Shown: in pieces, positions 39,459-45,418 of the stretch
Layout: each line of letters begins with the position of its first letter
Position numbering within the stretch: position 1 is the stretch's first letter
Source of the DNA: a virus
Strand: one strand, 5' to 3'
IMG/VR virus record: IMGVR_UViG_3300010399_000003
Span: 1 to 48,852 of that record
DNA: 48,852 nt
Translations under genes and position numbers: made by a program
The notes under the pieces: model-generated
Seen by the model: the letters and a program-made list of their open reading frames with translations, nothing else
Database searches by the model: none
What the model was told of the DNA's origin: nothing

Positions 39459-40769
39459 TTAGGAAACCCACTCATAACCAGTGATCCAAACATAGCCGGT
39501 GCCAGCACCAACACGGAAATACATCGCCTGCATCTCAGTGTGAAATTCCGACGAAAAGCCAACAACCATGCTATTCGCTGCGGCTGGTTGTTGCATAATA
39601 ACATTATTGCGGAGCGTTGTTGAACGCATGTCATAGGCATCTGGAACCGGACCAATGCAAACACTTGCACCGTTCGTTGTATTTTGACCAGCAGCCCACA
39701 CTTTAGTTGGTCCATACGGAATTACCGTTGCCAGATCCGTGAGTACTTCAATAGTTGACGTTGAACCATTCACGATGAGATGATCATTTAATAATTGAGC
39801 GCGTCGGTCAGTTTGAATGAACGCGTCGAAGTTGCTCGAACCATCATTGTAAACATAGCCAACCTTTGTATTCTTTGTATAACCAGTTGGCATCGTCGGC
39901 ACACTATCGTTAAGGCGAGTGTGTGTTTTGAATGTATAATCGGCAGTTGCACTTGAAGTCCAAGTCGTTCCATCGTAGCCATAGAACTGACCATTTGCGT
40001 AAACACTACCTCCTGCGGAATAGTGCCACGAAACATAGTTGACAGCACTCGTGGTATAATCACCTTGTAGAACAATGTAATATGTCGTGCCGGAGGTCAG
40101 AGTTGCAGGTGATCGGAAGATGAATTGTACCCACTGACTAGACGTGCTGAATGCATTAGCGTCGAGTTTGTCCGACGTCGCGAGTGGCGTTCCGGATGGA
40201 CTGCCACTGGAATCTGCTTCAATAGTCAACCATACACGACCTGCTGGATTACCAGCACGAAACATCAGAATATCAACTGCGTCCAGAGGACCAGTCGTGC
40301 CTGGCTTAAAGCTCTGACCTTCCTTGACGTTGGTTGTGGCACCAAATCGGAGTGGGCTATTTGTTGTCTGTGCCGTTTGCGATTGATCAACAGGTGCGGA
40401 TTTCGCCTTGTGTAAAAGCAAACCCTTAGTGCCATCATCTTTAGCAATGGCGTGCACTTCGTATCGAGTTGACGCAGCCTCGCTACCAGTGTCAAGGCCG
40501 TTTGCGCCAGAAACAGTAATATCAGCGGTCTGACCATCCCAATTACTCAGACGAGTTCCATCACTCATCACGATTTCATCCGCCTTTAACCAGACTCGAC
40601 TTGCAGCCAAGTTAAAGTCAGGATGTGTCCGCAAGCGTAGACCACGAAAAGTTTGTAACAGATGGTGTTCAGATCGAAGTGAGTTAAGATTATCACGAAT
40701 ATGGGTATTCAGCATCGAGGCTGTCACCATTTCGCCAGCGTTCCACGTACGAGGATTTGTCCAAGCCAT
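39459..40769 (-). CDS. tail fibre protein
   Basis: N-terminal MAWTNPRTWNAGEMVTASMLNTHIRDNLNSL is typical of tail-fibre N-termini. Rich in Ser, Thr, Gly and Asn; sits in the tail module. Confidence 0.6.
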   Translation of the reverse strand: MAWTNPRTWNAGEMVTASMLNTHIRDNLNSLRSEHHLLQTFRGLRLRTHPDFNLAASRVWLKADEIVMSDGTRLSNWDGQTADITVSGANGLDTGSEAASTRYEVHAIAKDDGTKGLLLHKAKSAPVDQSQTAQTTNSPLRFGATTNVKEGQSFKPGTTGPLDAVDILMFRAGNPAGRVWLTIEADSSGSPSGTPLATSDKLDANAFSTSSQWVQFIFRSPATLTSGTTYYIVLQGDYTTSAVNYVSWHYSAGGSVYANGQFYGYDGTTWTSSATADYTFKTHTRLNDSVPTMPTGYTKNTKVGYVYNDGSSNFDAFIQTDRRAQLLNDHLIVNGSTSTIEVLTDLATVIPYGPTKVWAAGQNTTNGASVCIGPVPDAYDMRSTTLRNNVIMQQPAAANSMVVGFSSEFHTEMQAMYFRVGAGTGYVWITGYEWVS

Positions 40770-43214: not shown

Positions 43215-45418
43215 CAGTTTAAATCCCCATGAGCAATATCACTGTGTTGATCACCATGTGGCGTATCGGTATGCAACACATCCGTGTGAGCAACGTCGCC
43301 GTGCGCAGTATCAGCATGTGCTGAATCGGAATGTGCTGTATCTGAGTGAACACCGTCTGCATGAGCCGCAATATCAGAATGTGCTGTATCAGAATGTGCT
43401 GTATCGCCGTGACTAACGTCAGCGTGCGCCACGTCAGAATGTGTGTTGACTAAGGCGACATCCGAATGCGCAGTATCCGAATGTGAATCTACGTGTGCCG
43501 AGTCACTATGTGAATCACTGTGCGAATCGGTATGCGAATCACCATGCGCAATGTGACCAGGTGAATCGAAAAATTCTTCACGATCAACGTGCGAATCAGA
43601 GTGAGAATCTTCGTGTGCGATATCAGAGTGAGCTACGTCGGAGTGGGAATCAGAGTGAGCTACGTCGGAGTGCGCCGTATCACCATGCGTATCACTATGT
43701 GCAGTATCAGTATGCGCGCGGTCTGAATGAGCAGCGTCGCCATGAGCAACGTCTGAATGAGCGACGTCACCGTGCGTTCCAGCATCTGCATGTGCAGCAT
43801 CACCATGGGCAACGTCCTGATGTGCATCATCAGTATGCGTATCGGAATGAGCTATGTCTCCGTGTGCAGTATCCTGATGCACGTCAGAATGAGCCACATC
43901 TGTATGACCAACGATCAAACCAAATCCAAGTCGCGTTGATCCATCAAGTTCGGAAAGTCCCTCGATTTCCAATAACCAAAATGCCGTTGAATCAGCAGGG
44001 ACAAGTGTAAATTCGGTTCGGAGTGTATTATCTTGTTCCGTCTCAGTGATTGAATTAATGTAGAATGAACGCGTGATACCAGTCACGTAATCCGTCAGAC
44101 CAATACGATCACTGATGTCACGATCAAGGCTTCTTGCTAATTCTAATGCATCGCTATTCAAGCCAACAAAACGAACGAGACCCGAAACTTGTGTTATCGG
44201 AAAGGCCATAGAAAAAACGAAATATTGCGCAGCTTCCAATCCAAATCGTGGATCAGCTTGATACACCATATCAATCTGTTGCACGATTGGACCATACTGT
44301 GCAATACTCGTATCGTCTTTCCACTGCATGACAGTCGCACCATAATCATACAATGGTTTCCCGCGTTGTTGTAGTTTCGTCAAATAGCCAGTCACACCTC
44401 CGTTGTACGTCACAGAAAATTCTGTCGCGTTTCCAGAAAAACCAATCGTCACCGACACAAAACCTGTCAGATTCGTTCCGCTTCCATCACTCGCCGTATT
44501 TGCTGTGTAATCGGTAGTCGCTGTGATTGGTGCTAAATCAGCAGCGCCAACACGAACGTCTGGATTATCTGGATCTGTCCAAGGCCCAAGAATTGTAATA
44601 GTCTGGCCAGGGATTAGCTCCATTGGTTGTTTCATCGAGAACATGACAACGTAGCTGGAGCCAGGCACCCGAGGATGAACAGTTGATTGAACCTTGTTGA
44701 TCAGACTAGTACGATCTCGATCGGCGACAAACCCAAAATGATCATCATACACATCAGCATTAGTTGCACTGATTGCACGACGGGTTCTGGATTCATACAC
44801 AACAGTTCCGTCACCACGTATCCAGCAACGATCTAAACCACTAATGCATAGACGATAAATTTCATCGCGAAGCACTGTCTGTTCATCTCGTGTACGATCC
44901 AGTGAATACGGAAAAATATCAGCACTCAAATCCATTTCCAATGCGTCAGGCTGGCTGACGATCGGAATTGAATCAATGAGGACCTGGAAAATCTCGTCAC
45001 CTCGTTTGTTGATTTGTACTGGAAGATTTTCTAATCTCGTTCGCTGTGCAACATCCATCCAATCGACAACTTCACACGATACCGTACGAGGACCGTGCCG
45101 ACCAGTGATTGGAGTGATTGAATCTAACACGCCAGTAAATCGGATGATACTGCCGATTCGATAGCGCACACGGATATTCAATTCAAATCCAGATCTCCTA
45201 TTTTCATGATCTGGACTGTAATATCCGATTAATCCAACACTGTTTCGTTCGCTATTGTCGAGTGAAAAGGACAGAGTGCCGATATCGGCTACAAGATCAA
45301 GAATGGAAGAACCAGGGAGACCACGATGCCACGTGATGCCAGGACCACGAAGCACATCGGTAACGGTCGTCCAACCATTACCACGGCCGCTGAATTCCAT
45401 TTCAATGATGCCACTCAT
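43214..45418 (-). CDS. tail protein (Dit-like position after TMP) with a C-terminal His-Xaa-Asp pentad-repeat domain of about 230 aa
   Basis: 734-aa ORF whose start overlaps the TMP stop. The last 230 residues hold about 46 HxD motifs at roughly 5-residue periodicity (TAHSDVAHSDSHSDVAHSD...). Confidence 0.75.
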   Translation of the reverse strand: MSGIIEMEFSGRGNGWTTVTDVLRGPGITWHRGLPGSSILDLVADIGTLSFSLDNSERNSVGLIGYYSPDHENRRSGFELNIRVRYRIGSIIRFTGVLDSITPITGRHGPRTVSCEVVDWMDVAQRTRLENLPVQINKRGDEIFQVLIDSIPIVSQPDALEMDLSADIFPYSLDRTRDEQTVLRDEIYRLCISGLDRCWIRGDGTVVYESRTRRAISATNADVYDDHFGFVADRDRTSLINKVQSTVHPRVPGSSYVVMFSMKQPMELIPGQTITILGPWTDPDNPDVRVGAADLAPITATTDYTANTASDGSGTNLTGFVSVTIGFSGNATEFSVTYNGGVTGYLTKLQQRGKPLYDYGATVMQWKDDTSIAQYGPIVQQIDMVYQADPRFGLEAAQYFVFSMAFPITQVSGLVRFVGLNSDALELARSLDRDISDRIGLTDYVTGITRSFYINSITETEQDNTLRTEFTLVPADSTAFWLLEIEGLSELDGSTRLGFGLIVGHTDVAHSDVHQDTAHGDIAHSDTHTDDAHQDVAHGDAAHADAGTHGDVAHSDVAHGDAAHSDRAHTDTAHSDTHGDTAHSDVAHSDSHSDVAHSDIAHEDSHSDSHVDREEFFDSPGHIAHGDSHTDSHSDSHSDSAHVDSHSDTAHSDVALVNTHSDVAHADVSHGDTAHSDTAHSDIAAHADGVHSDTAHSDSAHADTAHGDVAHTDVLHTDTPHGDQHSDIAHGDLN
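43217..43915 (-). repeat. imperfect coding tandem repeat (about 15-nt period) encoding the HxD pentads
   Basis: The DNA shows reiterated gaatgtgctgtatc / gagtgagctacgtcg-type units. Confidence 0.8.

Follow-up and report, generated by a model that had tools for sequence, protein, structure and literature searches.

Several groups of radical-SAM enzymes with a SPASM domain resemble the enzyme of the viral locus described here. The triceptide synthases HtkB (modifying H-T-K), HaaB (H-A-A), YhhB (H-N-R), ChlB (Y-D-R), XyeB and GrrM/OscB are radical-SAM/SPASM enzymes that lack an N-terminal recognition domain and act on repeated aromatic-x-x motifs, with His accepted as the aromatic residue (PMC11499958). 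The formation of cyclophanes on H-x-x motifs by joining His C2 to a C-beta is proven chemistry (PMC11499958). In the His-Xaa-Ser system (HxsA, HxsB/HxsC, HxsD), a protein with His-x-small/polar repeats is encoded beside a dedicated radical-SAM/SPASM enzyme, and the function is likewise uncharacterized. Anaerobic sulfatase-maturating enzymes (anSMEs) have the same architecture and act on a full-length protein, oxidizing Ser to formylglycine. DynA, grouped with DarE as the dynobactin/darobactin synthases, forms a bond from His N-epsilon to C-beta over a three-residue span, an alternative bond type for an H-x-D triad.

A locus of the same family was noted in 2024 as the “rSAM module” of the Thermus phages Cumys and phiMa (Viruses 2024, PMC11437467), and our comparison shows the same three-gene order there: a repeat protein upstream, a radical-SAM enzyme 49% identical to that of the window, and DUF483 downstream. 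The passages describing the module refer to two “proteins of unknown function”, suggest a possible unknown DNA modification, and do not mention H-x-D repeats (PMC11437467). Cumys, phiMa and a third phage that carries the module, phiLo, are cultivable phages of Thermus thermophilus.

A three-gene module in a tail operon

The window, that is, the whole stretch of DNA analyzed, comprises 48,852 nt (positions 1 to 48,852 of virus record IMGVR_UViG_3300010399_000003). Three genes follow the tape-measure gene directly, as had been predicted, and all lie on the minus strand (Table 1). Module genes overlap by 1-26 nt: the start of the tail-tip gene overlaps the tape-measure stop, its own stop overlaps the start of the radical-SAM gene by 1 nt, and the DUF483-methyltransferase gene shares 26 nt with the radical-SAM gene at one end and 1 nt with the following gene at the other. 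The identity of the tape-measure protein rests on size and synteny because the protein has no Pfam match; the part in the window matches, with 100% identity, residues 377-1503 of a protein of 1503 aa on a 112-kb contig, L059, where a tail terminator and a Phage_tail_T chaperone precede it. In each of two related loci, L067 and L068, two successive downstream ORFs begin with the N-terminal ~31 residues of the 436-aa protein that lies downstream of the module; such a pattern is typical of a shared fiber-attachment segment, which these residues may be.

Table 1. Coordinates of the module and its neighbors in the window.
Feature	Coordinates	Strand	Basis
Tape-measure protein gene (context)	45415..48852	-	ORF open to window edge
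Tail-tip protein, distal-tail-protein position, 734 aa, proposed substrate	43214..45418	-	Gene order
H-x-D repeat domain, residues 505-732, 45 triads	43223..43906	-	Triad count versus shuffles
Radical-SAM/SPASM enzyme, 434 aa, proposed maturase	41910..43214	-	Pfam PF04055, 54.6 bits
CxxxCxxC radical-SAM cluster motif, C12/C16/C19	43158..43181	-	Motif; conservation in 35 homologues
SPASM cysteines C241, C246, C266, C300, C303, C309, C313, C329; also Arg268, Asn270	42228..42494	-	Invariant cysteines
Enzyme C-terminal tail with 5 H-x-D triads of its own	41928..42023	-	HGDHWD ... HAD ... HGD ... HGD
DUF483 + methyltransferase protein, 388 aa	40769..41935	-	Pfam; AF2 model
DUF483 domain, about residues 9-243	41207..41911	-	Conserved C105, C106, H153, C156, C160, R144, R149, H196
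Class-I SAM methyltransferase domain, about residues 255-388, accessory tailoring	40772..41173	-	Rossmann-like fold, GxGxG
Probable tail fiber, 436 aa, downstream (context)	39459..40769	-	phrog_17105

The repeats of the tail protein

The repeat domain had been described as about 46 pentads. The number is nearly right (45 triads), but the period is not fixed: successive triads are spaced by 5 residues in 29 cases, 4 in 11 and 6 in 2, and there are two gaps. His and Asp each make up 20% of this region, and 45 of its 46 His residues sit in triads, compared with only 5 His in the N-terminal 499 aa. Shuffled versions of the region contain 9.1 +/- 2.4 triads (maximum 18), which excludes chance as the source of the observed 45. 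The DNA that encodes the repeats is degenerate and uses mixed codons, indicating that the pattern is maintained at the protein level.

The 734-aa protein fills the position of a siphovirus distal tail protein (Dit), directly after the tape measure, and from this gene order we infer that it sits in the virion; searches with its N-terminal 500 aa of Pfam, PHROGs, the PDB and a phage database returned no match, and the repeat protein has no match in NCBIfam. Homologous tail N-domains were found in 80 viral loci. Its sequence contexts mark the H-x-D repeat as portable. In the window it is joined to the distal-tail-position protein and in L007 to a J-like central fiber (phrog_5616, 6e-57); elsewhere it occurs on small fiber-like proteins such as Cumys_13, forms a separate gene in three loci (L012, L021, L022), and is found in bacterial peptides of 78-98 aa.

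The radical-SAM/SPASM enzyme

Every cysteine of the predicted CxxxCxxC and SPASM motifs is present, as C12-x3-C16-x2-C19 and C300-x2-C303-x5-C309-x3-C313 together with C241, C246, C266 and C329. Across 35 homologues the SPASM set and a GGE motif are invariant, and CxxxCxxC is invariant or nearly so. The Pfam Radical_SAM score (54.6 bits against a gathering threshold of 29.5) assigns the enzyme to the superfamily, and C-x2-C-x5-C-x3-C with its upstream and downstream cysteines assigns it to the SPASM subgroup; this motif is predicted to hold two auxiliary [4Fe-4S] clusters. Profile-match coordinates put the start of the radical-SAM core near residue 10, the place where it starts in XyeB, YhhB and GrrM, and by these coordinates the enzyme has no N-terminal recognition domain, like the cyclophane synthases and anSME. 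The locus has the putative substrate and the architecture of a triceptide system, namely repeated aromatic-x-x motifs encoded beside a radical-SAM/SPASM enzyme of this kind.

The best NCBIfam matches of the enzyme are anSME, DynA, PapB, AmcB, YhhB and GrrM, all far under their cut-offs. Models of characterized triceptide enzymes (XyeB, GrrM/OscB, FxsB, YhhB, AmcB) score 31-52 bits against cut-offs of 310-450 and, at the level of sequence, the window enzyme is a separate family from the curated triceptide synthases. DynA, the second-best match, aligns over its full length at 68 bits against 450. Assignment as an anaerobic sulfatase maturase (TIGR03942) was rejected at 73.7 bits against 349, with neither a sulfatase nor a C/S-x-P-x-R target. 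Membership of the His-Xaa-Ser system was rejected: HxsB (TIGR03978) gave 28.1 bits against 370, aligned to the N-terminal core only, and the locus has one radical-SAM gene and no HxsD. Nor is this a RiPP with a short leader-core precursor, the putative substrate being a domain at the C-terminal end of the 734-aa protein, although the 78-98-aa precursors of some bacterial relatives imply that the wider family includes RiPP-like members. In the PDB, the family profile matches anSME best (2e-19) and ChlB second (1e-12), followed by CteB and SkfB. On these similarities, the nearest relatives of the enzyme (anSME, DynA, PapB, AmcB, YhhB, GrrM, ChlB) all modify proteins or peptides.

The window enzyme is 49-53% identical to those of Cumys, phiMa and phiLo. 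Its family is highly conserved (at least 50% identity across phyla) and comprises more than a thousand sequence clusters in many bacterial phyla, and is absent from curated RiPP and radical-SAM models. At least 2 triads occur in the enzyme's own tail in 84 of 105 family members, and HGDHxD in 64 of 105.

The DUF483 partner

The 388-aa protein matches DUF483 (PF04467) over residues 74-115 at 27.7 bits, above the gathering threshold of 25, and the precomputed Pfam annotation of an identical protein (P0001) agrees. The AF2 model has a pLDDT of 93, and the confidently predicted DUF483 fold has no solved structural relative. The remainder is a class I methyltransferase, with a generic Rossmann-like fold and a GxGxG SAM-binding motif. 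Some homologues bear a PqqD peptide-recognition domain, and fusions of radical-SAM enzyme and DUF483 exist. In some loci 2OG-Fe(II) oxygenases are fused or adjacent, so oxidative tailoring belongs to the system. A methyltransferase had been proposed as the third component; the domain is there, but the conserved part is DUF483, and the Thermus phage versions lack the methyltransferase. Comparison of homologues thus presents DUF483 as the obligate partner and the methyltransferase as an optional add-on.

Joint gain and loss of repeats and enzymes

Evidence for a functional link came from two sets of loci, neither of them phylogenetically independent. The first was anchored on radical-SAM homologues of at least 40% identity and contains 41 non-redundant loci, drawn from viral contigs, from Thermus phages and from bacterial genomes of at least 8 phyla. 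DUF483 adjoins or is fused to the radical-SAM enzyme in 40 of these; the exception, L010, is a contig that ends about 1.8 kb past the radical-SAM gene, and its longer duplicate L011 has DUF483. Aromatic-x-Asp/Lys repeats are encoded nearby in 38 of the 41: an ORF with 9-101 H-x-D triads lies within 10 kb in 33, and the others comprise one locus with 7 triads, one with 12 Tyr-Asp-Asp repeats and three with H-x-Lys repeats. L035 and L037 have no repeat protein within 10 kb of the radical-SAM gene, and L006 has triads solely in the enzyme's own tail. In 13 control loci with only distant radical-SAM enzymes, no ORF has more than 3 triads.

The reciprocal set consists of 57 phage loci that encode a homologous tail N-domain and could be assessed. 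Repeats and radical-SAM gene are both present in 13 and both absent in 44, with no mixed cases (Fisher 4e-13, uncorrected for phylogeny). The co-occurrence that the original prediction proposed as a check therefore held in both directions. In L067 and L068, where the N-domain is 56% identical to that of the window, the tail protein ends “...RLAFGLIVGNP*” exactly at the repeat junction, and both enzyme genes are absent. These comparisons strongly support the view that the radical-SAM and DUF483 genes are gained and lost together with the repeats.

Residue specificity of the triads

In a set of 40 proteins with 1397 triads, the middle position is unconstrained, with 19 residue types, and triads lie 3 to 9 residues apart. 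Asp stands at +2 from 96% of His residues and 26% of Tyr/Phe residues, compared with 1-4% for every non-aromatic residue, and Phe replaces His as often as Tyr does. The repeat motif is aromatic-x-Asp. Among 30 enzymes of the H-x-D type, Arg268 is conserved in 100% and Asn270 in 87%; the double change Arg268Leu/Asn270Asp occurs only in the H-x-Lys clade, a single clade of three loci. This swap parallels HtkB, where the charged active-site residue D214 sets specificity for Lys at residue 3, and Arg268 and Asn270 are probably the residues that read the third position of the triad.

Models for the action of the module

Co-occurrence, junction-exact gain and loss, motif logic, the charge swap and the relatives of the enzyme support the claim, made in the original prediction, that the radical-SAM/SPASM enzyme is a dedicated maturase of the tail H-x-D triads, and suggest that the phage uses enzymes to cross-link a tail protein of its own. 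The genes, the motifs, their co-inheritance, the motif logic and the family relationships are observed; we infer that the repeats are the substrate, and likewise the bond type, what DUF483 does and how the phage benefits. With moderate confidence, we favor a model in which the radical-SAM/DUF483 module matures the tail protein by triceptide-like cross-linking within triads; against it stand the low scores with all curated cyclophane-synthase models and a best match, anSME, that is not a cross-linker. The three genes would form one protein-maturation module carried inside the tail operon. In the infected cell, ahead of tail assembly, the radical-SAM/SPASM enzyme would act with DUF483 on the extension at the C-terminus of the tail-tip protein, recognizing each aromatic-x-Asp triad (45 His-x-Asp copies in the window protein), with Arg268 and Asn270, beside the first auxiliary cluster, probably contacting the Asp side chain. 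A hydrogen atom would be taken from the Asp beta-carbon, and this carbon joined to the imidazole of the His two residues upstream, giving one three-residue cyclophane of the triceptide type per triad. The likeliest link is the C2-C-beta bond made by HtkB, HaaB and YhhB, with the N-C bond of dynobactin as a possible alternative. Small rings would then follow one another along a 230-residue chain projecting from the tail tip; the chain would be stiffened and protease-resistant, with imidazole nitrogens and carboxylates left free, for example to bind metal or a receptor. DUF483 may serve as a subunit that holds the substrate, or may be a second catalyst whose metal site is formed by Cys and His, and the fused methyltransferase may add optional methylation.

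The same triads might instead be modified without ring formation, by epimerization that yields D-His or D-Asp (PoyD, YydG and EpeE are epimerases of this kind), by beta-hydroxylation or dehydrogenation of Asp, or by conversion of the middle Ser to formylglycine. The co-occurrence data fit any modification of the triads, the oxygenases in some loci are consistent with oxidation, and anSME is the best single match in both profile and PDB searches, albeit far under its cut-off. However, the strict pairing of residues i and i+2 is what a joining reaction predicts and is unneeded for single-residue chemistry, the first position tolerates Tyr and Phe but not non-aromatics, and with Ser in just 264 of 1397 triads a formylglycine target is not conserved. 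Modification without a ring is therefore unlikely. We regard as improbable a model in which the repeats are an unmodified metal-binding fiber, a trimeric rod stapled by His/Asp-metal contacts, with the radical-SAM enzyme and DUF483 as assembly or metal-delivery chaperones and the HGDHWD tail of the enzyme docking on the repeats. In the needle of T4 gp37, H-x-H motifs bind iron, and the His- and Asp-rich composition, the conserved Cys/His cluster of DUF483 and the triads in the enzyme tail could all be accommodated; but variable spacing and a free middle residue fit a regular metal-stapled rod poorly, Phe is no metal ligand, an H-x-Lys variant exists, and the invariance of the catalytic residues across the family argues for catalysis over a chaperone role. 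The cross-linking model itself allows for metal binding once the rings have formed.

The suggestion that the module modifies DNA or another non-protein target, with the repeat protein an unrelated structural or metal-binding neighbor, draws on passages that place some cyanobacterial homologues beside deazapurine DNA-modification genes (PMC11437467), and a methyltransferase fold as generic as this one would suit it. The cyanobacterial locus that we examined has housekeeping neighbors and no DNA-modification gene within 10 kb. Joint gain and loss at an exact domain boundary, PqqD fusions, a charge swap that tracks residue 3 of the repeat, and near relatives none of which act on nucleic acids make such a target highly improbable.

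Implications

In the literature searched, there was no precedent for Asp as the cross-linked third residue or for a structural protein of 734 aa that bears dozens of rings, and enzymatic cross-linking of a tail protein has not been described for any virus particle. If the cross-linking model is correct, radical-SAM peptide cross-linking extends from small secreted natural products to large virion structural proteins; aromatic-x-Asp joins its motifs and DUF483 enters as a new partner protein that is obligate, and phages have a further means, new to phage biology, of constructing or hardening the organelle that recognizes the host. A broader proposal, which we hold tentatively and which falls a little short of even odds, is that phages of several lineages use a radical-SAM enzyme and the new-fold DUF483 to install dozens of His-to-Asp three-residue cyclophanes on tail-tip extensions. 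Virus particles would thereby gain their first radical-SAM post-translational modification, and the product would be a “poly-triceptide” material on the scale of a protein. The module would also be the founding case of an aromatic-x-Asp/Lys maturation system for proteins and peptides, widespread in bacteria and missing from curated libraries.

Comparison with known systems

Within the family, the Thermus phages carry the repeats on a small 343-aa protein encoded after baseplate and fiber genes, in contrast to the post-tape-measure protein of the window. The His-Xaa-Ser system differs in having Ser rather than Asp (or Lys) as residue 3 and an N-terminal extension on HxsB that the window enzyme lacks, and the partner here is DUF483. 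Dynobactin and darobactin are each one short antibiotic peptide, not a series of repeats, and are made without a DUF483 partner. Unlike in anSME substrates, the conserved positions here are His and Asp, not a middle Ser. Triceptides are made on short leader-core peptides with 1-5 motifs, whereas the cross-link proposed here would be made with an obligate DUF483 partner on a 734-aa phage structural protein and would have Asp as residue 3, and the repeat proteins of this family have up to 101 motifs each.

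A three-gene module in the tail region

In the window, the genes for a tail protein, a radical-SAM/SPASM enzyme (rSAM) and a 388-aa protein with a DUF483 domain fused to a methyltransferase overlap one another on the minus strand, directly 3' of the tape-measure gene. This is where the original prediction had placed a repeat protein, an rSAM and a third gene. The tape-measure ORF is open at the window end, and its product matches residues 377-1503 of a larger protein (1503 aa) with 100% identity; the gene for that counterpart lies on a 112-kb metagenome contig, behind those for a tail terminator and a Phage_tail_T chaperone. 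Searched with megablast against 50,697 phage records, the 4.6-kb module region gave no match, and no curated NCBIfam model covers any of the three module proteins. The first 500 residues of the tail protein (the N-domain) matched nothing in Pfam, PHROGs, NCBIfam or the PDB, nor in phages by tblastn, and identification of the 734-aa product as a distal tail protein therefore rests on gene order. The predicted CxxxCxxC and full SPASM motifs of the rSAM are both present, with cysteines that are invariant across 35 homologues.

Over the part compared, from the tape measure up to and including the DUF483 gene as called on locus L059, the tail module exactly matches a 112.8-kb metagenome contig (SRR6185503), so the window element is a large phage or prophage. 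The window contains no tRNA genes. Its coding strand switches near 35.6 kb, from many small genes (1..35500, +) to the tail module (35800..48852, -). The 436-aa protein 3' of the module begins with about 31 residues (MAWTNPRTWNAGEMVTASMLNTHIRDNLN...) that also open two consecutive ORFs in the related loci L067 (10336-11447) and L068 (9490-10898). This start looks like a common attachment segment for exchangeable tail fibres.

Features of the window and of compared loci (L-numbers; L003 is Thermus thermophilus phage phiLo)
Feature	Location	Strand	Description
Peptidase-like protein	window 35808..36560	-	250 aa; phrog_16701; tail module, downstream
554-aa protein	window 37017..38681	-	no family match; tail module, downstream
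163-aa protein	window 38596..39087	-	phrog_3108, weak tail-lysozyme match; tail module, downstream
436-aa protein	window 39459..40769	-	3' of module; first ~31 residues recur in relatives
rSAM (gene 2)	window 41910..43214	-	434 aa; CxxxCxxC and complete eight-cysteine SPASM signature
rSAM C-terminal tail	window 41928..42023	-	residues 398-429; 5 H-x-D triads
Tail protein (gene 1)	window 43214..45418	-	734 aa; C-terminal H-x-D triads
phiLo_135-137	L003 14810-19154	-	three consecutive H-x-D-rich ORFs; up to 101 triads
Large bacterial repeat proteins	L061 3517-6462; L041 5477-9628; L043 5104-9618; L049 7448-9997		Bacillus cereus, Proteobacteria, Bacteroidota
PH[ILV]K repeats replacing H-x-D	L047 4007-6667; L048 6832-9972; L049 7448-9997		C-terminal, on 850-1047-aa proteins; Bacteroidota
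211-aa protein	L052 9350-9982		twelve (P)PYDD repeats; directly 5' of triple fusion
Triple fusion	L052 9989-12745		919 aa; rSAM + DUF483 + 2OG-Fe(II) oxygenase; Actinomycetes MAG

The repeated motif

The original prediction described about 46 pentad repeats at the end of the tail protein. Residues 505-732 contain 45 His-x-Asp (H-x-D) triads, compared with 9.1 +/- 2.4 when the same residues are shuffled, and 45 of the 46 His residues there lie in a triad; "pentad" is approximate, the spacing being chiefly 5 or 4 residues. The DNA of the repeat region is degenerate, with mixed codons. The triad pattern is therefore kept at the protein level, and recent DNA slippage is ruled out as its source.

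In a pool of 40 distinct proteins with 1397 triads, the middle position accepts 19 amino acid types, successive triads lie 3 to 9 residues apart, and 94% of the His residues within repeat regions are in triads. The triad thus behaves like a short autonomous recognition motif rather than a structural repeat of fixed period. Across the 36 densest repeat regions, Asp is found at +2 from 96% of His, 26% of Tyr and Phe, 10% of Trp, and 1-4% of every non-aromatic residue. Since Phe, which is incapable of binding metal, also occurs at position 1, this position is best called "aromatic". An aromatic first position agrees with the YDD variant locus, and cyclophane (triceptide) synthases share this motif logic. 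In one clade, comprising three Bacteroidota loci, residue 3 is Lys.

Co-occurrence of repeats and enzymes

The window rSAM is 49-53% identical to homologues in the cultured Thermus thermophilus phages Cumys, phiMa and phiLo, each with a DUF483 gene directly 3'. Cumys_13 (343 aa), encoded directly upstream of the Cumys rSAM, has 54 H-x-D triads. The phiLo repeat ORFs are on the strand opposite the rSAM gene and 4-9 kb away; IS605-type transposase genes (L003 7815-8944, +) lie directly 5' of that rSAM gene.

When viral and genome collections were scanned with the rSAM, homologues at least 40% identical to it turned up at 41 non-redundant loci. DUF483 adjoins or is fused to the rSAM at all of them except L010, where the contig stops about 1.8 kb beyond the rSAM; a longer duplicate, L011, has DUF483. 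An ORF with 9-101 H-x-D triads lies within 10 kb at 33 of the 41 loci. One further locus has 7 triads, one has the twelve (P)PYDD repeats, three from Bacteroidota have PH[ILV]K repeats, and on one short contig the triads are confined to the rSAM's own tail; L035 and L037 have no repeats within 10 kb. Thirteen control loci from the same scans, with distant rSAMs only, have at most 3 triads per ORF.

Relatives of the tail N-domain were found at 80 viral loci, 57 of which have enough downstream sequence for the reciprocal test. Repeats and rSAM are both present at 13 and both absent at 44, with no mixed case; these counts are phylogenetically non-independent, yet include close pairs. L066 and L069 have the module, while L067 and L068, with an equally similar N-domain (56% identity), lack both enzyme genes and end "...RLAFGLIVGNP*" exactly where the window protein runs on "...RLGFGLIVG-HTDVAHSD...". 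The repeat extension and the two enzyme genes therefore come and go as one unit. The comparative genomics proposed in the original prediction was thus positive in both directions, with repeats at 38 of the 41 rSAM loci and the 57 N-domain loci unmixed.

Repeat carriers in phages are of four kinds: the protein encoded next after the tape measure (in the window and in its relatives, one of which has a lectin-like insert), a central tail fibre resembling J (L007; phrog_5616, 6e-57; Pfam Phage-tail_3), small proteins encoded beyond the baseplate and fibre genes (in Cumys and phiMa), and a separate gene beside the hub protein (L012, L021 and L022). Bacterial versions are leader-plus-core peptides of 78-98 aa or proteins of 850-1500 aa whose repeats are C-terminal; carriers include Bacillus cereus, Bradyrhizobium, Sphingomonas, Acidobacteriota, Actinomycetota and cyanobacteria. 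By eye, a helical segment rich in Ala, Gly and Lys seems to recur in the large bacterial proteins immediately before the repeats; this segment, "...LKD.G....A..L...GF....I..A...F", may be a leader-like recognition element.

The enzymes

NCBIfam matches of the rSAM (anSME, the anaerobic sulfatase-maturating enzyme; DynA, PapB, AmcB, YhhB, GrrM, QhpD and XyeB) are nearly all rSAM/SPASM modifiers of proteins or peptides, and all score far under the cut-offs. In the PDB, the family profile picks out anSME, ChlB (a triceptide synthase), CteB and SkfB, and no nucleic-acid enzyme. Like the window rSAM, anSME and the cyclophane synthases lack an N-terminal recognition domain. The original prediction drew a parallel with the His-Xaa-Ser (Hxs) system, but profile scores and gene content rule out membership. 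The profile comparison that it proposed thus yielded protein- and peptide-modifying relatives without placing the enzyme in a known family: judged by sequence, the rSAM forms a family of its own, outside Hxs, anSME and every curated triceptide family, though probably working like them. This family is sizeable and closely conserved: it comprises over 120 clusters (>= 50% identity), annotated only as "uncharacterized" or "AslB-like". A defence system is also ruled out, since the sole PADLOC match, to viperins, reflects the generic rSAM core.

In the H-x-Lys clade, and in no other, rSAM Arg268 is replaced by Leu and Asn270 by Asp; among 30 H-x-D-type enzymes, Arg268 is conserved in 100% and Asn270 in 87%. 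Cys266, an auxiliary-cluster ligand, shortly precedes both of them. The change is charge-compensating, comparable to the role of HtkB D214 for Lys (PMC11499958), and tracks residue 3 of the triad; coming from one clade, it is suggestive only. The rSAMs of this clade (L047, L048 and L049) also have Gln at 149 and 151. At least two H-x-D triads occur in the rSAM tail of 84 of 105 family members, and HGDHWD is invariant in the tails of the window, Cumys and phiLo enzymes. These triads could serve for self-modification, as a pseudo-substrate or as a docking element. The tails are longer in phiLo and L006.

DUF483 is fused to the rSAM in L037 and L045. The family has about 1270 clusters at 50% identity; most matches in text searches for its name are prefix artefacts (DUF4832 and similar). 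AlphaFold models of DUF483 are very confident (pLDDT 93-94), yet neither the PDB nor the viral models contain a meaningful structural neighbour of the domain. Conserved Cys105, Cys106, His153, Cys156 and Cys160 suggest a putative metal site. Some DUF483-methyltransferase homologues (P0089, at L062 8001-9884, and P0067) carry a PqqD peptide-recognition (RiPP recognition element) domain. A 78-aa peptide neighbouring a PqqD-bearing homologue starts with a leader-like segment and has GFHTDFHGDHSDSGHTDTG as its core. The methyltransferase domain is an accessory tailoring step, as it is missing from the Thermus phages.

Proposed mechanism and alternatives

We consider it likely that the rSAM and DUF483 act together on the repeat domain, which would occur in the cytoplasm before assembly. 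In each triad, the aromatic ring of residue 1 would be cross-linked to the beta-carbon of Asp 3, with methylation as an optional step. The product would be a chain of small rings at the tail tip, stiff, protease-resistant and still able to bind metal. Of the readings considered, this one is best supported; its specific chemistry is proposed tentatively, as a possibility that falls just short of probable. Alternatively, the triads could undergo a different radical reaction, for instance epimerisation or Asp oxidation.

Published work on Cumys and phiMa, in the text available, guessed at DNA modification (PMC11437467). The joint inheritance of repeats and enzyme genes and the relatives of the enzyme argue against this, as does a cyanobacterial locus whose neighbours are housekeeping genes only. 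In a further model, the repeats would form an unmodified, metal-stapled fibre; this is at odds with a spacing that varies, with Phe in place of His, and with the invariance of the catalytic residues.

Relation to known systems

A 2024 paper had noticed the three genes in Cumys and phiMa; its available text neither mentions the repeats nor suggests protein modification (PMC11437467). The literature searched describes no H-x-D repeat system, no DUF483 function and no modification of phage virion proteins by radical-SAM enzymes, and searches combining rSAM with phage tail, or RiPP with virion, found no earlier description. The window module shares the known arrangement of an rSAM/SPASM maturase with a repeat substrate, and differs from such systems in its substrate class (a virion structural protein), its motif and its obligate partner.
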